Positions 1 to 47,049 of a stretch of DNA of 64,000 nucleotides are shown here, one piece after another. Every line of letters starts with the position of its first letter. Within the stretch, counting starts at the first letter, position 1. Origin of the DNA: Styela clava (lineage: Eukaryota); assembly GCF_964204865.1 (NCBI RefSeq), contig NC_135257.1, positions 14,818,001 through 14,882,000 of the forward strand, given 5' to 3'. A model generated the notes under the pieces. The model did not search any database. It was given only the letters and a program-made list of their open reading frames with translations, and was not told where the DNA came from. Made by a program: the position numbers and the translations under genes.

Positions 1-99
1 ACATTATTCCTTCGCTATTTCGACTATAAATAGATTAGTGAAATAAAACAACAACACAAGGACAAAAAAATAACTACTTTTACAGAAACAAAACATAAA

Positions 100-240
100 A
101 CTGTCACGTGAATCCGTGAATCATGAGCGACGCGAAACAGCGAAATAACGTTACGGTAATTGTCGGGTGCCTTGTCTTCATCAAAGTGACTCCTGTAATA
201 TACCAGTAGTCACTTCGGTCTTCATATAAGTTACGGTATC
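100..240 (+). promoter_or_regulatory. Possible promoter of the MULE-derived gene (E-box GTCACGTG, CpG-rich)
   Basis: GTCACGTG at ~103-110 and CpG-dense 120-240 immediately upstream of ATG 292. Confidence 0.35.
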
Positions 241-291
241 TATTCAGCGGTATTTTTTTCGTTTGTTTGTAAAATGTAGAAAATCTGAATA

Positions 292-2296
292 ATGGACGAA
301 GTACAAAATTTCACGGCAACAGATGCATTGACGTTCATGGGAGAAGTTTCGAGTGGGTTGAAAACTTCCAGCGATGTTCCGATCGTTCTTGCAGGTGGTG
401 GAACATGCTATGCATTTTGCAGCTTGGAAAATCCACGAAAGAGAGGTAAGCACGTCTTTGTTTTTTGTTATCATGCTTATGTATGTGTTTTTCTAAGTAC
501 AATCAAATTTATGTTGTTGTTTTATCTTGATCGGTGATGAATGTGTTTTTCCCCCTTAACACCTCCCATTACTGCATTACCAGCACTCTCATTTATACTT
601 TATACGTCATAGTTATATTGGAATTCATGTACTTTGAGATTTTAAATGACATCACTGATAATTTCATCCACAGAGTCAGGTGCAAAGAACATGTGAAAAG
701 TTGAAAGCCAATTCTGGCTTTGATATCATTGAGATCCATTGAGCATGACAGTCCGAAAATATATTTAATCACAATAATTTTCTTATTTTGTTTACAGATG
801 ACTGGAAGGCAGATGGGTATCGTTGGCGACATACTGGCAAGGCCAAAATTAAAATTAATAACACTGTAATTCGCAAAACATACTTCAGTGTATTCTCAGC
901 TCCAAAAATTTACACCTCTAATTTTCGTCGAATATCTCACGAATGTGATGAATATCCCCACATTGTTATAGTCTATTACAAAGGAGATAGTTCAGTGGCT
1001 GGTAACTTTCCTCATGGCAACAGGAGATGTGGTTCAAAGCCGTTTATCAGAACATGTCCATCTGTTTTGTTGTCATGTAAATATGCAAAAGGCGCCCCTT
1101 CAACGATATATCACAGCATGATCAAATCCACGTCTAATGAGAATGACTGTGCTATCGGAACTCAATTATCTTTACCTAGAGATATTTTACAAGTTGCCAA
1201 TGTCAAAAAGTACATGAGAAAAAAACGCAGGCTTACTCTTAGTGCAATAAGAGAATTACAAAATGAAGATGTGGAAAAATTCATCATTGATATTTCATGT
1301 CAAGATGATAGTTTATGTGCGGTTGTGTATCAAGAAGAAAGGTGTCATAAAATTAATTCACTTTTGTCCAGACTTCCACTGCCGGATGGGACAACATTGA
1401 CATACTGTTTGTGTTCTCATTTTAAAGACTATAATATAAATGTTCTTTTGTGTGAACACCAGGATTCAATTATAATTCATCTTTTGTTTTTCATACATCA
1501 TTCAAAATCTACAATTAATTTGGAATCGATATGGGAAATAGCAAATAAGAAAATCCCAAAATTGTCATTACAAAATATTATATTGGAAAAGAATGATGAG
1601 CACTTGTGGATGACTACACAGAAGACATATTTTGACTTTTCTCCTTTTATATCTGTCATAGAAAAATTAAAAATGTGGGATGATAATCCATGTGATGCAA
1701 TTGATGACCTGCAATGTACTGCAAAGCATCTTCACAATCTTTCATTATATTATCGTTCTTCAGCAAAAAATTTACATTCAAAAATGAACAAGCATGGGAA
1801 ATATCGAATCAATGATAAGTTTACTGGATTATTAGACTTGATGCAAGATGATGTTCTTCTTTGTTGTACTCCAACCTTTGAAGAAGCTACGGCATACGTT
1901 CAAAAAGCTTTTTCGACAAATCGTAACGCAGATAAACTGAACTACAATCCACTTGAGCTCGCCCGAAATATCATTGACAGAAATGGAATAGAATTTAAAT
2001 CCACTACTGGTATATTTTTAATTACTGACGAAATTTCAGTATGGACCGTAAAATTATTTCCAGTGGAGACATGTCACTGTAATTTTCCACCTCCATGTCA
2101 TCATATCATTGCTGCTAAATATTCCATTGGAATTCCTTTTCCTAAACCAACTTTGATGAAACAAAGTCAGTTTAAACGCAAAAAGTTATCTCATGATTTT
2201 CAACCTAATGGAAAAATAATTGTTGAAATATTTGAATCAGAAAATGATGACACAGGGAAAGATGATGAAAGTGTTTTAATTGAAAAGGCCCCATGA
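292..2296 (+). CDS. Two-exon gene (292-445, 798-2296), ~550 aa: CG-1-like DNA-binding domain + degenerate Mutator/MULE-type core + C-terminal SWIM zinc finger (probable domesticated transposase)
   Basis: Donor AG|GTAAG at 445/446 and acceptor tttacag| at 797/798 join in phase (G+AT=Asp) to give ...NPRKRDDWKADGYRWRH... Motifs: KADGYRW and FRR...PHIVIVYY resemble the CAMTA CG-1 domain (RKDGYCW, FHRR..PDIVLVHY); PHGN follows; HLLFFIHHSK is MULE-like; ETCHCNFPPPCHHIIAA is a SWIM CxCxnCxH; basic FKRKK and an acidic tail end the protein; AATAAA at ~2355. Confidence 0.75.
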
Positions 2297-3764
2297 TATT
2301 AGAGTTGATAATTGTTACAAGTACAAATGTCCGAACAAGTCTAAGTTTGAATGAAATAAAAATGAACTACCATATTTTACCGACTATAAGGCACACTTCA
2401 AATAATTTTTTCTTCTCAAAATAACCATGAAAAAATTGTTGTTTTCTTGTTCAATGAGCTTTGCACAATCTAAGCAATTTATTGTCTGGTTTTTGAAAGT
2501 TTTTTCAAGCTTCATCTGATCAGAATCGCTTTTTCCTGTAAAATTTTCAATCTAATCTACTGATGTTTTTCTTCTAAATCAACTCATTCAAGCCTTTTTC
2601 AATTCTCTACTTTTCATCATTTTCCACCTTATTACATTAAATACTGATGTTGGTTATAGAGTATTTTGGAATACTGATGCAGACATATCTCATGTACTAT
2701 ATTGTTTCAATTAAAATTCTCTATTAACAAGCTTTTATACAATAATTAAATACAGAATGAATCGTCCTAATGTCTGCTTTTACATTGGGAAGTCAGATTC
2801 AGTCCTTCCATCAAACTGAGACTTTTTTAGATTTAGTACCATCTTTTCATGCACTATTACTGCTAGATCAGAGAATATATGGGTATCGGGCAGTTGAACT
2901 GAATTATCTGGCAGGATTGCTGCGATTACACGATGTCTTGGGTACATATTGATGGCCATTTCACATTAACCATTGGTTTAAGTAACATGTGGTTTATATT
3001 TAATTAATGGTGGTGTAGTTTGAAGGCGATATGGCTGACAGAGAATGCAGCTCTTTGTGAACTGGAGAGAAAAAGCGCTTCAAGATTGTTGGTGAGGATG
3101 CCCATGGTAAGATGAAATTTATTAAAAATCCAAACCACTTAGCATTTGTAACATTCATTCCATGCAGAAATGACCCCTTGCAATAAAAATAGTGACCATT
3201 TGATATTCTTATTGAATGTATATGGGAAGGCTGCCGATGCATACACTCGGTTATGTGGTCACCACTAAAAATTAATTTCCATTCATACCAAGCCAGATTT
3301 CCTTCTTTCAAAACTTCCCATTTGCAAGAACAAACTCTTCGCGAAATTGGCAGTGTTTTATTATATACAGTAGGCAGTGAAGACTGAAGGAAAAATCTAC
3401 CATAGGAACAGTAATGAAACAAAAGCTTATTTACAAAGAAATTGAGTAGAACTGATAAATTCGTACTTTCAAATTTCAGTTCTAATAAATCATCAAATTC
3501 AGTATGGATATGGCCAACTAGAGGATTATGTTTTTGTTGGCAATCAAATACGTTTTAAACAAGAAATTACCTATATAACCTGATTTCCGCTACTACAACG
3601 ATGCATACCAAAATAATTCAAATAAATGCAATGATTTCCATAACTAACTATACAAATATGAACGAAACCATTTATACACTGCCAAACAAGGCAAATTTGC
3701 AGAAACCCTAGCCAATGTATCATTTGGTAGTAAAGGGAAATTTTTTTTTGTGCACGATGATTTA

Positions 3765-6700
3765 TTACTGTGAGCTTAATTTCTCAATGTCTGCAATTAA
3801 CTTTCTTGAAAAATCCTCATGTGCAATAGGTGAGATTTCAACAACTGTTGATCTCAGCCGCTCTTCATCCTGAAACAACAAGTCATATTACAGAGAAGCT
3901 CTTTTCACCAATAAACAATTCACAAGCAGGAGAGGCCAAAATCAGGCTATTTCTAATACATTTTGATTTTTGATGATATATTATTTTAGAATATCAATTA
4001 AGAGATTCAAACGTCTTGATGCACACTAACTCAAAAAATTTGGAGTGTGACCTTGGTCGGGTGGCACCCTAAAGAAATACAATTGTGTTTTAAATCACTC
4101 GGAATAGTTGTCTTCACCCTTGCTACAGCATCCTTATATTATATGCATATTGACCCACTGGAGTAACAGCATAGAATGGTGTTTCCCAACTATTTATGGC
4201 TTGTGGCCCCCTTCCCAAAGGCTTTTAGCACTCGTGGCCCCCTTTTCATCATTTCCGTGGTATTTATAGTGTTATTTTGATTGGTATATTCCAAATCCCT
4301 CTATGTTCAAACAATTCACGCTCAACAAAGTGATGTTACTCTGTGAAATAACCATATCAAGCAATAAAACTAGGATCCTACATTGTATCTCTCCATTTTC
4401 ACACGAATTTTGAAGAAGTAAGAAGTGAAGTTTGGCTTTTTTAGAAGTTCTTCAAATTGTGCTTCATTTTCTTCCATCAAAGCTCCGATTTCATCAGCTT
4501 TTGAACCAAGTATAATTTCTCCTTGTTCTTGGAAGCATGTCACCCAAATATTGTCAGTCTCATCTGATATATTCATCTGAAGCCAATATACAACAGTTTA
4601 TTTTTTAAATTTTATTAAGGGAATTTGCTCAAAGCAAGGTCACACGTACTCACTCAGATAGATACAAAGAAGAATGATCTCACACTGACTAAATGCAGAG
4701 GAACTACAGCCCATTATAATAATATTTGTAAAATAGGGCACAATGACGCAATATTTAGCCAATCGGGAATAGTTTGCAGTCTGGACACTGATTAGAAACC
4801 AATCACATTTGATATATTTTTTTGAATTCTGTCCGTTTTGTGAAAAGGTTTTACTTTAAATGTAGAGCTCATTCTATGTTTATGAAGAAACTGTAAATGA
4901 ATAAAACTGAATGAAGAAACTATAAAAAGGAAATCTGGCTTGGTAGATGCACTTGGGATGAATGGAAATCCATTTTTAATGGTGACCAATAAGGGGTCAT
5001 TTCCACACTGCATGGAATGTTACAAAATGAAAATTGCAGAAGATATTTTCCTATGCATAATGGTATTGCTAATGTACTATGGAAGTGTTTGCTATCAGTC
5101 TGTTGGTGCTTTAATCAAAACTGCGACAGTGAAATCCAATTTGCATTGTTGCATGGGTTTTATTTCCATAACTGTAAACCATATTTCTTTTGAATAATTT
5201 TTTACGTCAGCATTGTGATTTACGGGTTTTAAAAGCATGCCAATGATGAAATTGGATATAACAAATAATAAGATTTTCATACATTGAGAATCATTCTGTA
5301 TTTGAAGTCAGGAGACTCCTTGTTGCATTTCTCACATCTGAAAGAACCGTTCTGCAAATCGATCACTTTCTTATTACATCGTTCAGTTGCACATGCCTGA
5401 AAATTAAAAAAAGATAATTATCATCCTTTTAGTGAGGAAGTTCCCAACTTATCAACAAAATTACTATGCTCAAACATTGCTACTGAAACCTTGTTTTACA
5501 CAATTCCCTTCCACATTGACCGAAATTATCTAAAATTAGTTATCTACTGATATTTCTGTCACAAAGATAAATCTAAATATAGCAGTTAGTAAGTCAGAGA
5601 ACATAATGAGATTTGGAATCCACGATTCAAAATAACACTATAAATACCACTGGAATGATGACTATGTACTCAGGAACATACATATTTTTATGAAATTGTG
5701 TAACACTTAAACATGACGGTAATTTACAATACTGAATGCAAATTACCTTATATAAAACATTCTCCTTTTTGCAATAAGTGACAATACATTTACATGTCAC
5801 ATAGTCAGGTTTGTCACCCATGCCCATGTTTTCTTCTTTTATATCTTCCAGAGTTTTCCAGTTTGTAGCTGTAAAGCATTTCAAAGTGATAATTAGTTGT
5901 CAAAACATGAAAGAAATAAAGCTATAGCGTAGCCATTGATTAGAAGCTATAGTATATAAACTATAGCAGAAGATTATCAATAATGAAAAATGTGTTACAT
6001 ACTGTATGCGCCTCCACCACCAGTTGTAGTTACTGATGTTGTTTCTTGGTTGCAACCTCCAGATTCAAACCTAGAAAAATTACAAGTGAAACAATATGTT
6101 ATAAATGTTATGAAAGGGTATTATGTAGCAAAAATTTGAATTAATTGGGAAAAAACAATCAACTGGTCTTACATATTACTATTATTAAATAAAATAGTAA
6201 TAGCAAATGACCAATGGAAATTTGACATGGCTTGGTTATTACTTTACAACATATATCAAGAAATTCGTCGCAACGATTGTCTATCCATCAATACTGGCCC
6301 GATGACCTACCTAGTAGTATGAGAATTAGCGACGTAGGTTACAGATCTCTCTTTAAACCCATGCCCAACCAGGCGTAATCAAGTCGATAGGTTTTTTTTT
6401 TAGGCAGTAAAATGTGATTGATGTATGTGAGATTTTCAGGAATTTTGAGCAACATTGGTTTTGGGCATACAAACAATATGTCAAATTCTTCTTTTTTTCA
6501 ATCCAATTCATTGTTGCCATATTTCATCAAATATGAAAAAAAAGTGTCATATTTATCCATCCTGAAAAAACTCAAGTCACTCAGAATTCAGAAATAAATT
6601 TCACCATTGTTTTAATTCAAATGCTTCTGGAATGTCAGGATTCTTCATCATTGTTGTTGAACTAATGGTAGATATCGAACATCCACCAAAATCAGACACT

Positions 6701-9700: not shown

Positions 9701-11947
9701 TGCTCTGAAATGAATGACCAAATCTGAATAGTCTGTTATTCATTGGGGAGATTACTAAGATTCAAAATGTTAATTACAAATCAAAAATATTGAGTCTCAT
9801 TTATTGATCATATTTTATGAGCAGTAATGGCCCATGAAACAACTTACTGAAGATGATATTTTCAAATATGCAACATCGATTACATTCTAATTTAGGTAGG
9901 CCATGTGGTTTGAATGTTGCTGAAAAATTATTACTTGTTCTGATAAGGAGTAAGGCTAGCAATCGGCATCACTCTCATCGGTGTTCCTCCTGGGGTGTTT
10001 GGAGTGGTCCCCTTTGCAAATGGCATTTTTCCAGTTGGTTTGGGACTGTCATAAGCAGAAGTAGAGTTTCCATTTGTTTTGTTGGCTGTTCCATTGAAGG
10101 ATGGTTTTGGCCTCGAACTACCTTTCACTGAATATAAATGTCAGGATGACGATTTATTCATTTACATATTTATTTATGAAAAATTCATTTTTTCATCTAC
10201 CATAAAATTACAAAACAGCCAAATTTGGAGTTTAAAAATATTCACCATGGCTGTGTCACAGCCAATACTAATTTCAAATCTAGGTGCTCCCAAAGTATGC
10301 GAACCAAGATGGCGGACATCGGAACGTAACATGGGTAACAGGTTAGGATTAGGCGATAATTTTTTTCCAATTTTCCTTATTTTAGTCCTATTATCAGTTC
10401 AAAGACTAGCCAAGAGCCTCCCGTAGTATTCATACCAAAAATTATGGCCTAACCTAGTACACATGTTACATTCCGATGTCCGCCATCTTGGTTCGCATAC
10501 TTCGGGAGCCCCCAAATCTATTCTCTTTAACACTTGGAACTTTAGTCCGTGTATGATTATACCCAAAAAGTTTCAGGAATCCAGGGCGTTTCGCACAAAA
10601 GTAATATCCTGTCTAGAATATGTTTCAAATGACCTGGGTCTTGTTTTTTTTTCTAGTTTTTTGAGTGAATATTCAAAAATCATTCATGAAGTATTTATTT
10701 ATCCAATTATATAATTACAAAAGTATGATAATATTTGACTCATGTTAGACATCTATGCCAAACCTATATAACATAACTTCATCGACATAGCATTTCCTGA
10801 AATATTCATAAAATATAAAAACAAACCAAAGTTAGTAGATGATACTGGATCTCCGATTCTTTGCCCAACTTCATCACCTGTTTTGAGTATTTCAATCTCA
10901 AGACAAACAAGGATATGCCTGGTAAAAAAAGCAGTTTTAATGATCTGAATAAAAAAAATGATGGCGTGTGGCGTTCTCCAGTCGGGAAGATTTCCTTCCT
11001 GCAGAAGATTTTATTGTAAAATATGAAAGTTCGGGAATCACTGGACCAGTGTTTGAGGGTTGGATCTATGGAACAAAGGGAACGTACAGTATCGAAAATA
11101 TTCATTAGAAAAGATAAAAGTAAAAAGATAAAACTACCTTGATTGCTGTAGTACTGAGACTTGATATTTTGTTAATTTGATAATTGCATATTTATCGATT
11201 TTCTTCTCTTTCACAAGATGATTTAGCTGAGTGGCAAGCATGGTGGCTGAATGAAAAAATAAGTATGTGTAAATTGTGGGGTTAGCTATGCTAGTGTCAA
11301 TTTTATGTCAAGAATGAAGCTAGTCGCAAAGTGGGTATGACAACATATGAGAATTCATAAAAAGGCATTATTTAAATAGGAAATCTCACTGGCTAAAGAA
11401 TATTCTCCATCTGATACATTGAGACGAACTCTTTCGGTCGCACTGCTTTCAATAATTTTTGTTCCCAGCACTTGAAAAACTGGATTTTCTGGTTGCTCAT
11501 CACTCAGAATTGCCTGGAATGTATATACAAATGTAAATTTTTTGACTAATCACGAATCAGCTAATGCTGTAATTTTCCTCACTTCAACATACAATTCCAA
11601 ATTGATATAGCTAAAGATTTAGCCAAGTTTATTCTCCCAAACTTAGTATTTTTTGAGTTCTTCCCATTTTTAAATGATCAATTAGCATCAAAACCATTGA
11701 TACACACATTTTTGAAATTTGACAAACTGACAAAACCTATTTCTGTATTTATAATAGTATACAAACACCCTAATAATCTGAGATAAAAAAAATTATTAAA
11801 AATTCAGTTTAATTAGAGAATGACTTTAACTGTATTTGTAAACCATTAGACAATACTCTCAGAAGACTGAACAGAACATACCGGTACCGTAGGAGATTGA
11901 AAAAAAATACTTACAGCAACAACCCCTGGCTTTACAAGATCTGCCAT
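3765..11947 (-). CDS. RPA1: Replication protein A 70 kDa subunit (14 coding exons)
   Basis: Exons (- strand): 11915-11947, 11390-11513, 11138-11246, 10827-10918, 9935-10127, 9264-9435, 8735-8930, 7336-7475, 6605-6753, 6003-6070, 5747-5868, 5283-5396, 4382-4576, 3765-3869, with GT-AG junctions. Peptides: [71 protein letters not shown], the zinc ribbon [11 protein letters not shown]...CEKC and [16 protein letters not shown]. Confidence 0.97.
8067..8615. mobile_element. Non-autonomous hAT (Charlie-like) MITE in an RPA1 intron, with an internal CAGGG(A/T)TGTCC-family insert from 8161
   Basis: CAGTGCTTCTTAACC...GATTGAGAAGCGCTG termini; near-perfect 8-bp TSD actcatac/acttatac. Confidence 0.75.
9069..9212. 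mobile_element. Tc1/mariner-pogo (Tigger-like) MITE
   Basis: TA|CAGTGATACC...GGTATCACTG|TA: TIR with TA target duplication. Confidence 0.8.
10283..10512. mobile_element. GG-ended MITE, 8-bp TSD (Merlin-like family A)
   Basis: Long TIR GGTGCTCCC.AAGTATGCGAACCAAGATGGCGGACATCGGAA; perfect TSD caaatcta on both sides. Confidence 0.85.
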
Positions 11948-14685: not shown

Positions 14686-17600
14686 CTATTTTTCTCCATT
14701 CATATTAATCTGAGGTAAGCTGTAAGAAGATTCATCCGCAATGACTCCTTTCAATGGTCTGAAATCGCCATCTTTTGGTGTTGAACAATCCATCATATTG
14801 TTTCTCCCATTCATCATATGCACTGAAGTATCTCTTGTTGGAATATGAGACTTTGAAAAGGAAAAAAAATGGTAAAAATCTGTTCTGCGGAACTTATTAC
14901 TGGCACTAAAATTAGTTTCTTAAATTATAACTTCAAAAATGAACAGTGGCAAATCTGTACAACAGAGTTGACTAAGCCTGAACGTTTATTGCCAATACTT
15001 TCAGTGAAAGCGAAATACTTTGGTGAAAAACTACATCCCCAAAAATTCGAAATATTTTGAAAAAGATTGGTTTACAAGTTGCGGTGAAAACCAATTTTTA
15101 TCTCCGCAACAACAATCACAGAAACAAAAATTCATCAACTATCATAAAACTATTTCAATGTCCACTAAGCTCAAAATGAAAATGAGGTTACATTTACATC
15201 CGACAAAGTAACATATCCATTTTCTCTTTTACAAGCATCATGAAGTTCTTGTTTCAAAGCATTAATGTGGGATCTGTAAGATGCGATCTGATCTTCAAGA
15301 GATGTTATTCGTGATACTGCACTGGATTGTACGCGTACAAATGATTGAACAGCTCGCTGTCAAAAAAGTCATTTGAATAACTGTAGGAAAGTTAAAAATT
15401 ATTAAAGTAATTGAGCTAACATACGGTTATTTGATTGGGCAACGATTAAAATGAAGCATGATAACACTATCAGACGTGGCATAAACACAGAAAGTGATAA
15501 AAAAAAGTTACATTGAAAACAGGTGGAAATTTCGAGACTGCTCTCACCGTATTATTTAATTTCACAATACTAGAATATTGAACAAATGTATTGCCTGCAA
15601 AGCAGTTATATTACTACTGTTAAGTTATTTATAATAGAAATTAGAAGTGATTTGCTAATTGTTGGAAATCACAGCGTTTATCTTTTTTCAATTAAAATCA
15701 AGAACAAAAATTTAAGAAGTAACATGGAGAAAGTGAACCCTGGTCTATGCCTAGATATTTTCCAAATTATACATGTACTGTATTATGAATACAGTTTAAA
15801 AAGAGGAGAATCTGTATTGAAACTATTTTGAATTCCTAGTGAGAAAGACTGCATGAATATTTCTTCAAGATAGCTCTTATAGCGAGTCTAATCCTGCAAT
15901 GTTCAACGTAGAAACATAGATGTATTCAACCAGTGTAACTAACCTGAGCAGCAATGACGTCTGGTCCAGCATGGTCTTTTGAGATATTTCCTGGTAGTTT
16001 TGAATCCTAAAATATTAAACAATATTTTTGTAATTGATAATTTGGGTTATAGAAATTACCGATTAAGACCAGTAATAACAAATTTGGAAAAAAATTCACT
16101 CACGACAAGTTCCGCTGGATTATCAGACGTTTTCTTCAATAAATTTTCAACAGATCGAAAATAGGTTGCAAGAGAATCTTTCTCACTAGACAGAATAAAA
16201 GCAAGTTGGAAAATAAAATTAAAGGCATGCTGAACAAAGTTACAGACAATTAGGATCTCAATGGGTTTGTACGAGTGGATTATTTCAATCCAGTGGTTTG
16301 CAACCTTTTTTTCGTAAATTCCTCTCTTCACCTATTTTAGACCCCTTTATTCCTCCCTCGCTATTCATGAAAAGTACTATAGATTACACAGTAGGAAACC
16401 GTTATTTTGTGTATTCAATCTTCAATGGATCCCAAGCTATAGTGTTATGTACAATGCAAACTCGGGCTTTTGTACAGTTCAAGTAGTTCATAATGTGGGC
16501 AGAAAAGAGTATCATAGTAATAAAACTAAAAAATAATAGTAATACTACAGCACATACAAAGCAAAATTTCTACCCAAGAACTGCAAAATTCTCTTTAAAA
16601 AAACTCTTTAGGGAGGAATTCATTTCTGGTTGGGAAATTTTGTTCCAACTTCCAATCGTTTGAAATGCACAATTTTGGGTACTTTTGAAGTATGTGAACC
16701 AAGATGGCGGACATCGGAATGTAATATGTGTACTAGGTTAGGGTTTGGCCATAATTTTAGGTATAAATACTACGGGAGGCTCTTGGCTATTCTTCGAACT
16801 GATAATAGGACTAAAATAAGGAAAATTGGAAAAAAAATTATCGCCTAACCCTAACCTGTTACCCATGTAATGTTCCGATGTCCGCCATCTTGGTTCGCAT
16901 ACTTCGGGAGCACCCAATTTTGTATACCTTGGGTAACGTTTATAAGGTAAGCGAATGCAATCATCAAAAAAGAATCAATAATATAAATATTACCGAGCAG
17001 CTTTCTTCAACGCTTCTTTGGCATCAGACATTTTATTACCAAGATTATCCCTTTCCTGTTCAAGCATCATGACTTTTTTTGTTAACAGTCTCTTACTTTG
17101 TGTACATCTTTTCAACTCCATTTTTACTTCATTTAGGCTCTATAAATAGAATAGAAAAGGTTGGAGATACATACTTCTCAAAATTATTATAACAATCATC
17201 AATAAGGATGTCGAATCAGATGATTATATTCGTGTAAATGTGAGCAAGAATCTTCATGCAAGATATATAAGCCAACAAGATCAAGGCAATGAAACTATGA
17301 ACTTCCTCCTGAAGTCACCGATATCGGAAATCTGAATTACAGACCTTTAACCCTTCCTATGCGATTTTTATTTTTTATTAAATAATCGTATTTGCTACGC
17401 CGACTTTATGCATTTGTACCCCCACAACTAATTGATTGACTAAGGAAAAAGTAATGATCCTCAGCTGCCCACTGACGGCTCGTTGGAAAGCTTATTTAAA
17501 GAGCTTGCAATTGGCGATTAAAAAAAAAATTTTTTTTAAAAGGGGTGGTCTGAGTCACAAACCGGATAGTTGAAACTTCAAACCGTGATAAAAAATAGAA

Positions 17601-45630: not shown

Positions 45631-47049
<1,419 letters not shown>

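Follow-up and report, generated by a model that had tools for sequence, protein, structure and literature searches.

A catalytically dead Mutator-derived gene with a CG-1-type N-terminal domain and its head-to-head paralogue in Styela clava

The contig NC_135257.1 of Styela clava (NCBI RefSeq assembly GCF_964204865.1) carries a two-exon gene at positions 292 to 2,296 of the 64,000-nucleotide stretch analysed here (14,818,001 to 14,882,000 of the forward strand, hereafter the window). The locus raises the question of whether a transposase gene has become a host gene, and where its N-terminal domain comes from. An earlier note on this DNA had described a clean two-exon open reading frame (ORF) of ~550 aa with a splice junction at 445/798, a promoter-like CpG/E-box region, a poly(A) signal and neither terminal inverted repeats (TIRs) nor a target-site duplication (TSD). 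From the protein it had read a Mutator origin, a CG-1-like N-terminus, a catalytic core dead at LTYCLCSH, a SWIM finger, an FKRKK motif and an acidic tail, and it had proposed a lineage-specific domesticated regulator that may be an intermediate between Mutator transposases and CAMTA factors. Our analysis indicated that this gene (gene A, protein P0003) and a head-to-head paralogue (gene B, protein P0004) are Mutator-derived, catalytically dead, spliced and single-copy, and that both are probably nuclear DNA-binding host regulators, as predicted from the parts that they keep. The papers cited below are cited for the passages that bear on the point in question.

Mutator origin and loss of the catalytic core

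The gene is listed at NCBI as LOC120346817, "uncharacterized protein", and the translation of its joined coding sequence (1653 nt) was exactly RefSeq XP_039272583.2 (550 aa). After P0004, the nearest full-length relatives were transposases of Mutator-like elements (MULEs), namely P0005-P0007 (E 7.5e-26 to 4.6e-25, 24-28% identity), which carry the Pfam MULE domain (2/3 above the cut-off). The alignment of P0003 with the transposase-group relative P0043 by hhalign reached 99.7% over 272 columns, and homology to MULE transposases covered the DNA-binding domain (DBD), the RNase H part and the SWIM finger. These results demonstrated the Mutator origin of the gene.

To describe the catalytic core, P0003 was aligned with intact transposases. 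The residues C255, N317 and S333 occupied the columns of the first and second D and of the E (Table 1), the first of them within YCLCSH at residues 254-259. All of D, D, C, H and E were kept in 25 of the 149 aligned relatives, many of which are fragments, but not in P0003, P0004 or the related protein P0031. The distance from the second D to the next anchor, a conserved helix, was 126-128 aa in 5/5 intact proteins measured, versus 28, 28 and 26 aa in P0003, P0004 and P0031, the three full-length dead proteins. Thus ~100 aa holding the CxxH motif and the insertion region were deleted between N317 and S333 of P0003, and the deletion was common to P0004 and P0031. In P0004 both Ds were lost, and counting from the anchor placed E330 at the position of the E. 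Liu and Wessler reported that cleavage and joining by Muta1 need D, D, E and W, and defined the C/D-xx-H motif after the second D (PMC5499845). Because D/D/E and CxxH are lost while Muta1 requires D, D, E and W, P0003, to judge by its sequence, cannot be a working transposase. The loss was therefore larger than the earlier note had claimed.

The paralogue P0004 was invisible to that note, because it lies outside the window, just upstream of its first base. It showed 32% identity to P0003, the same intron position and phase, and divergent orientation, with the two ATGs 444 bp apart. A protein search of the own genome returned only these two genes. A DNA search with 4.85 kb returned the locus itself and six matches of 44-81 bp to the 3' flank; these counts are lower bounds, and with the same limit no dispersed near-identical copy of the gene was found, the assembly holding one full DNA match. 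A scan for TIRs with an 8-10-bp TSD, up to 6 kb on each side of the gene or of the pair, found none. As a control, related elements of the same genome showed inverted arms of 1-2 kb, and the element on C16 (Table 1) showed an exact 9-bp TSD.

Transcript evidence was taken from four runs of three studies, all of them only guessed to be RNA. The 445/798 junction was bridged by contigs in 2/4 runs (X5 and X7, one study) and met by loose exon-exon contig ends in the other two (X9 and X13, two further studies), and the intron of P0004 was skipped in 4/4 runs. Across the 444 bp separating the ATGs, the observed/expected ratio of CpG was 1.48; the median for the window was 0.60, and two out of 144 bins came up to 1.48. 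Contigs from both genes, which carry no strand or start information, ended or overlapped in positions 1..291. The E-box in this stretch is a single 6-mer and by itself no evidence. Downstream of the gene, transcript contigs stopped at window positions 2366-2647, and because of this spread the 3' end of the gene is not fixed; a candidate poly(A) signal is present. Five ORFs of at least 130 aa were found in the window, the long ones being that of gene A and a TIP49/RUVBL ORF. Collectively, the description of the gene in the earlier note held (exons, splice junction, CpG-rich region, poly(A) signal, lack of TIR and TSD), and the domestication that it proposed was supported by the dead core, the splicing, the single copy and the absence of TIR and TSD.

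Conservation of the clade and fold of the N-terminal domain

A HMMER search with a two-gene profile against 1.84 billion cluster representatives gave 1121 matches at E<=0.001. Next after the pair came the Logan records P0031 (555 aa, E 2.5e-107) and the partial P0032 (300 aa, E 4e-80), and the following match was at 1e-39. The best matches of P0031 and P0032 in the Styela assembly were the pair, at 31-42% identity, so they are not encoded by this assembly. The gene is thus older than one species, and in this, as in the pairing of the two genes, the picture given by the earlier note changed. Identity of the other three dead proteins to P0003 was no more than 30-36%, but the frames of the three full-length proteins have all stayed open. 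When shorter fragments of orthologues were sought, P0192 was the one weak match.

The four proteins P0003, P0004, P0031 and P0032 formed one clade with support of 100/100 in an 84-row tree (73 alignment rows with 75% coverage after removal of two alleles, plus 11 added rows). The clade was also obtained on residues 52-200 alone (100/99, 40 rows) and on the RNase H part, residues 205-315 (98/96, 33 rows, with a long-branch warning). All trees covered relatives of the transposase group and included no CAMTA sequence. The dead clade sat on a long stem; its sister rows were proteins resembling transposases, of which three bear Daphnia names. P0003 and P0004 were not recovered as mutual sisters but may still be so (approximately unbiased test, p-AU 0.076). 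On separate branches, P0086 and P0132 (492 aa each), P0079, P0087, P0152 and P0172 had altered catalytic motifs and are possible independent domestications.

The distribution of conservation differed between dead and intact proteins. Mean pairwise identity over residues 52-145 versus 210-315 was 0.55 versus 0.27 in the six dead-clade pairs, and 0.36 versus 0.39 in 22 of the 25 intact transposases (231 pairs). Within residues 1-330, 52 positions were invariant in the four dead rows, 35 of them in residues 52-145. Many DBD positions fixed in the dead clade were absent or nearly so in intact proteins (for example R62 1/21, K113 0/23, R128 1/23). Between two RefSeq versions of P0003, an older and a newer one, 22 residues differed, and residues 52-150 were free of such differences (Poisson P ~0.02, for a stretch chosen after the fact). 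Among 40 of 195 rows of single-nucleotide polymorphisms (SNPs), gene A had seven synonymous and six non-synonymous changes (13 sites) and gene B four and five (9 sites), giving ratios of non-synonymous to synonymous polymorphism (pN/pS) of ~0.22 and ~0.32. The conservation of the DBD in the clade, its lack of allelic changes and pN/pS of ~0.2-0.3 suggest that selection may be purifying and act mainly on the N-terminal domain. Judging from these comparisons, gene A is an old domesticated MULE gene.

To examine the N-terminal domain, an AlphaFold2 model of P0003 was built with the 149-row alignment (mean pLDDT, the model's confidence score, 76). The N-terminal domain had a pLDDT of ~96 and the SWIM finger one of 95; the RNase H shell reached 80-90, and residues 384-433 and the tail stayed below 50. 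The N-terminal domain was modelled as a helix (9-20) followed by a five-stranded sheet (39-43, 61-71, 74-86, 89-101 and 104-114). Over residues 1-135 the fold matches were WOPR (Z 8.2, root-mean-square deviation (rmsd) 2.8, 96 aligned), Ssr4 (Z 8.2, rmsd 4.0, 113 aligned), GCM (Z 7.9, rmsd 2.8, 92 aligned), a second WOPR (7.3), NAC (7.3) and WRKY33 (6.7). Each of these Z values (6.7-8.2) is near the background ceiling of the structure search (7-8), and it is the agreement of six members of the WRKY-GCM1 clan, all six top matches, that stands above background. Holm 2022 placed CG-1 with WOPR, NAC and Ssr4 in one subgroup of this clan and named the DxxxW motif (PMC9252788), and Plant-TFClass aligns CAMTA with NAC (10.1101/2022.11.22.517060). 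This motif was kept in intact relatives (D57 19/19, W61 18/20) and was invariant in the dead clade. The sequence motifs KADGYRW (55-61), FRR and PHIVIVYY were present, and residues 45-145 were basic, with 19 K+R versus 8 D+E.

The remaining parts of the protein are given in Table 1. The three-helix segment with its basic run is possibly, on the model, a second DNA-contacting unit or a nuclear localisation signal. Model residues 432-498 matched ZSWIM8 (Z 5.8) and Shu2 (Z 4.8), and the SWIM finger, FKRKK and acidic tail were all present as first described, although FKRKK was not kept in P0004. Pfam gave only WRKY (E 1.6) and SWIM (E 2.9) on exon 2, and 0 families at E<=1 on the 550-aa protein; the CG-1, MULE and SWIM labels of P0003 therefore rest on its relatives and the model. 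A sequence search of the PDB returned PHD domains together with WRKY (E 8e-5) and a transposase of the Mutator family (E 0.002), with no CAMTA among the best 60 of 116 rows. Foldseek with the whole P0003 model gave no match at E<=0.001. A structure prediction of P0031 made with the sequence alone reached a pLDDT of 33 and was not used, and a complex prediction of P0003 with P0004, likewise made with no alignments, scored 0.30 against a mark of 0.34, which is no evidence either way.

CG-1-type domains in transposases and related elements in the genome

Pfam CG-1 (PF03859, cut-off 23.5 bits) gave no match to P0003, 22 bits for P0004 (under the cut-off) and 25.6 bits for P0031 (over it), and intact transposases scored 26-44 bits. 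Among 71 relatives chosen for N-terminal coverage, 43 matched CG-1 and 17 matched MULE at E<=0.001. Both cut-offs were passed by 5/76 relatives scanned singly (P0038, P0042, P0043, P0059 and P0090); four of these keep D, D, CxxH and E, and P0042 is truncated. Several intact relatives also carry Ulp1 and PHD domains. By Pfam, no TIG, ankyrin or IQ domain was found in the 76 relatives scanned, nor in P0003, P0004 or P0031. These profile matches indicated that a widespread animal group of Rehavkus-like MULEs normally carries a CG-1-type domain at the N-terminus. Because the domain is normal in that group, the Styela gene would have inherited it from the transposase. The CG-1-like N-terminus of the earlier note was thus upheld for the fold and the DxxxW motif but not for a Pfam match of P0003, and its proposed intermediate between Mutator transposases and CAMTA was, on indirect evidence, not supported, since in trees that included no CAMTA sequence the gene was a derived tip within the transposases. 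Two to six tandem CG-1-type domains with no MULE match were observed in P0033, P0039, P0063, P0074 and P0055; P0033 (Capitella, 1394 aa, UniRef label "CG-1 domain-containing") has six. These tandem proteins are possibly further domestications or the best bridge to CAMTA.

A link between CG-1 and transposases is a natural extension of published work, in which CG-1 was assigned to the WRKY/GCM1 clan on structural grounds (Holm 2022) and that clan was connected with MULEs (Babu 2006). Literature searches matched no title or abstract on CG-1 in transposases or on these genes (top-ranked results for the broad searches; supplements outside the scope). The term "CG-1" occurred 0 times in the main texts of Dupeyron 2019 (PMC6446971), a 2026 arthropod MULE survey (PMC13359780) and the Codebook paper (PMC13538051), and CAMTA is not among the transposase-derived domains that the Codebook paper lists in the relevant passage. 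In Babu 2006 (PMC1702500), CAMTA occurred 0 times. The "Cg-1" of PMC3169594 is probably the name of a nematode gene.

Related mobile elements were found in the Styela genome (Table 1). The foldback MULE on C6 and C8 has two head-to-head genes, whose first 380 bp are inverted repeats of 94-95% identity. One encodes a transposase that has D, D, CxxH and E and is disrupted in each of the two copies; the other has altered catalytic motifs with Ulp1 and PHD domains and is open over 1013 aa on C6. It may be a two-gene MULE with a degenerate helper paralogue. The head-to-head layout of genes A and B recalls this element, but its ancestry to the pair was rejected (p-AU 4e-7). The family with copies on C13 and C18 was probably active recently, because its dispersed copies are near-identical.

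The gene order at the locus was SERINC (-), gene B (-), gene A (+) and RPA1 (-). Three side observations were made. A repeat 3' of the stop codon of gene B (L006:3313-3517) had very high contig depth in all four runs, with an inverted relative in the SERINC gene (L006:1598-1830). Copies of a ~240-bp palindromic element resembling a miniature inverted-repeat transposable element lay at L006:2653-2892, L006:394-583 and window positions ~10275-10516 and ~16674-16922. A single open frame of 472 aa at window positions 45631-47049 (+) encodes a TIP49/RUVBL-type ATPase and is apparently intronless.

Table 1. Features of the two genes, their neighbourhood and related elements. Positions with no prefix are those of the window.
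Feature	Position	Strand	Description or basis
Gene A, exon 1	292..445	+	Residues 1-51 and first nucleotide of codon 52; covers N-terminal helix and strand 1 of CG-1-type domain
Gene A, intron	446..797	+	GT-AG (GTAAG...ACAG), phase 1, within DBD
Gene A, exon 2	798..2296	+	Rest of coding sequence to stop codon
Rest of CG-1/WRKY-GCM-fold domain	798..1078	+	To residue 145; DxxxW (D57-W61), HGN (124-126)
Three-helix segment (139-195) ending in basic run KKYMRKKRR (188-196)	1058..1228	+	Model; weak match to Tc3 DNA-binding domain (Z 4.1)
RNase H-like shell with no catalytic residues	1271..1684	+	Alignment to intact MULEs; weak match to Hermes transposase (Z 4.2, residues 200-346)
Column of first D, C255	1406-1408	+	Alignment to intact transposases
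Column of second D, N317	1592-1594	+	Alignment to intact transposases
Column of E, S333	1640-1642	+	Alignment to intact transposases
SWIM zinc ligands C477, C479, C485, H487	2072..2104	+	CxC-x5-CxH (477-487); four ligand columns shared with intact transposases
FKRKK (510-514) and acidic tail	2171..2296	+	Low model confidence; to stop codon
Candidate poly(A) signal AATAAA	2355..2360	+	Sequence motif
Inter-ATG stretch, part in window	1..291		CpG-rich; likely bidirectional promoter and 5' untranslated region; CACGTG at 105-110
Gene B (P0004, XP_039272584.2, LOC120346818, 544 aa)	G000:C9:14815655-14817847	-	Just upstream of window base 1
Gene B, exons	G000:C9:14817847-14817700 and 14817141-14815655 (L006 5847-5700 and 5141-3655)	-	RefSeq and genome match
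RPA1 exons	~4370-5900	-	Rep_fac-A_C matches; converge on 3' end of gene A
Foldback MULE, 13-14.5 kb, two copies 98.5% alike	G000:C6:23733199-23747724 (L027-L029); C8:5467963-5480993 (L030-L032)		Inverted arms of 72-bp tandem repeats
Rehavkus-like element	G000:C16:19142564-19151654 (L033-L035)		1.7-kb arms of 359-bp tandem repeats; exact 9-bp TSD; 647-aa DDE frame, then Ulp1 frame
Copy of C16 element	C4 ~16912470-16921435 (L036-L038)		96% alike, broken
Further MULE family	G000:C13:4826862-4833110, C18, C5, C14, C220 (L015-L020)		Near-identical dispersed copies; C13 versus C18 99.5% over 6.2 kb

Interpretation of the pair

Other explanations of the pair were weighed against domestication as a regulator. 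The genes could encode a domesticated transposon suppressor, which would bind the tandem-repeat arms of live CG-1-type MULEs or poison their transposase oligomers. The same genome holds recently mobile elements of this domain architecture with long tandem-repeat arms, and the protein retains its DBD, helical segment, RNase H shell and SWIM finger, parts that a dominant-negative form would require. We regard this as unlikely, since the live elements examined sit in another clade, the grouping of the dead clade with the two-gene element was rejected (p-AU 4e-7), and R62, K113 and R128 are fixed in the dead clade but nearly absent from intact proteins, which suggests a different target. Absence of domestication, with the pair as a decaying or non-autonomous relic, perhaps of a C6/C8-like two-gene element, that is passively transcribed from the CpG-rich stretch, seems decidedly improbable. 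Such a head-to-head MULE exists in this genome, and the two genes show high allelic protein divergence (22 and 25 residues). Against this reading, the scans around the pair and the DNA search of the assembly found neither a TIR nor a TSD nor a further DNA copy. Both genes are catalytically dead with one shared deletion, and the pair could therefore at no time have moved by its own activity. Moreover, open frames persist at ~30% identity over three full-length proteins, substitutions avoid the DBD, and the same AU test speaks against the descent.

A domesticated scaffold of a chromatin complex acting without recognition of DNA sequence, a role suggested for the N-terminal domain of Ssr4, would agree with the tie of Ssr4 as best fold match and with the kept SWIM finger. 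It would leave aside the basic residues 45-145, the invariant DxxxW of the recognition loop and the fact that this domain is the best-conserved part, and we consider it very improbable. The evolutionary intermediate between MULE transposases and CAMTA factors is hardly credible. It draws on the CG-1 scores of P0031 and P0004, but P0003 itself has no CG-1 match whereas intact transposases do, the clade is nested among transposases on a long stem in trees with no CAMTA sequence, and none of the 76 relatives scanned carries a TIG, ankyrin or IQ domain. CAMTA is common to plants and animals and is therefore far older than this locus likely is.

Several results also weigh against the reading of the pair as DNA-binding host regulators. 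The splicing evidence comes from runs guessed to be RNA, and P0003 itself has no Pfam match. The fold does not prove function, because Ssr4, its tied best match, was judged non-DNA-binding by Holm 2022 (PMC9252788). The RNase H tree carries a long-branch warning, and the P0003 alleles differ at 4% of residues. The pN/pS values are rough, because they come from a part of the SNP rows and include one codon with two changes. P0031 and P0032 lie on short contigs, and no named orthologue was found in word-based and HMMER searches, in which names were looked up for 20 of the 150 listed matches.

If the pair are regulators, the CG-1-type β-sheet domain would recognise DNA through the major groove in the manner of WOPR, GCM, NAC and WRKY domains, and the three-helix segment would assist it. 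The emptied RNase H shell and the SWIM finger would serve as a scaffold with protein-contact surfaces, and the acidic, probably disordered tail could recruit co-factors. Probably the deletion came first, the host then fixed the gene, and an inverted duplication followed. Deletion is placed before the other steps because both genes and P0031 share it, and duplication after the loss of activity because the deletion is common to both genes. The two genes are probably co-expressed from the CpG-rich stretch between them, and their targets could be host promoters or the ends of related transposons.

The pair was compared with known systems. FHY3/FAR1-FRS and MUSTANG in plants and Rcs1/Aft2 and Rbf1 in yeasts likewise took a WRKY-GCM1-fold N-terminal domain from a MULE transposase, were fixed as single-copy host genes and quickly duplicated. 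The pattern of kept parts is like that of FHY3/FAR1 and Aft/Rcs1 in Babu 2006, which describes repeated MULE-to-regulator transitions (PMC1702500), and plant cases are mentioned by Dupeyron 2019 (PMC6446971). AFT2 was a fold match to P0003 at Z 4.7. Unlike these cases, the Styela pair has a CG-1-type domain rather than one of FAR1 or AFT type, lies head-to-head in an ascidian and has a function that is only predicted; a clean deletion of ~100 aa removed the CxxH insertion while the RNase H shell and SWIM finger stayed. Rehavkus-like or foldback animal MULEs, named here by resemblance and not by comparison with Repbase sequences, share the domain order of P0003 (N-terminal domain, helical segment, RNase H, SWIM), but P0003 lacks D/D/E, CxxH, Ulp1, PHD, TIR and TSD and has an intron inside its DBD. 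Rehavkus was described with a 9-bp TSD, PHD and minisatellite (Dupeyron 2019, PMC6446971), and a Tribolium preprint described tandem repeats in inverted ends (10.1101/2024.12.02.626372).

With CAMTA, P0003 shares the fold subgroup, the DxxxW motif and an N-terminal domain homologous at the family level, as the CG-1 matches of its relatives indicate; unlike CAMTA, it has no CG-1 match of its own and no TIG, ankyrin or IQ domain, and it retains the transposase body. ZSWIM1/3, DUF5575 (ZSWIM9-type) and CARF/ALS2CR8 are MULE-derived host genes of animals. They were ESM Atlas neighbours of P0003 with scores of 0.84-0.87, which are leads only; with no Pfam match on P0003 and no place among its named sequence matches, they are not orthologues.

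Plants and yeasts offer well-known cases of MULEs domesticated as regulators; the present case comes from an ascidian. MULEs were thought scarce in chordates, and Dupeyron 2019 found one sea-squirt sequence (PMC6446971). The anatomy is clear here, with the active site gone, the insertion cut out and the DBD most constrained; what is new is the CG-1-type domain together with the shared deletion, in a kind of event that was already known. The CG-1 domain is tied by sequence to intact transposases, which makes the origin of CAMTA testable. We tentatively propose, as a possibility somewhat short of even, that the CG-1 domain of CAMTA is the DBD of a living and widespread, Rehavkus-like animal MULE group, that CAMTA arose from such a transposase or shares the domain with it, and that the Styela pair arose by a separate and younger domestication of this domain, which gave an ascidian family of transcription factors. 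If this is true, the path from transposon to CG-1 factor would have happened at least twice, and the live elements in the same genome would allow its study.

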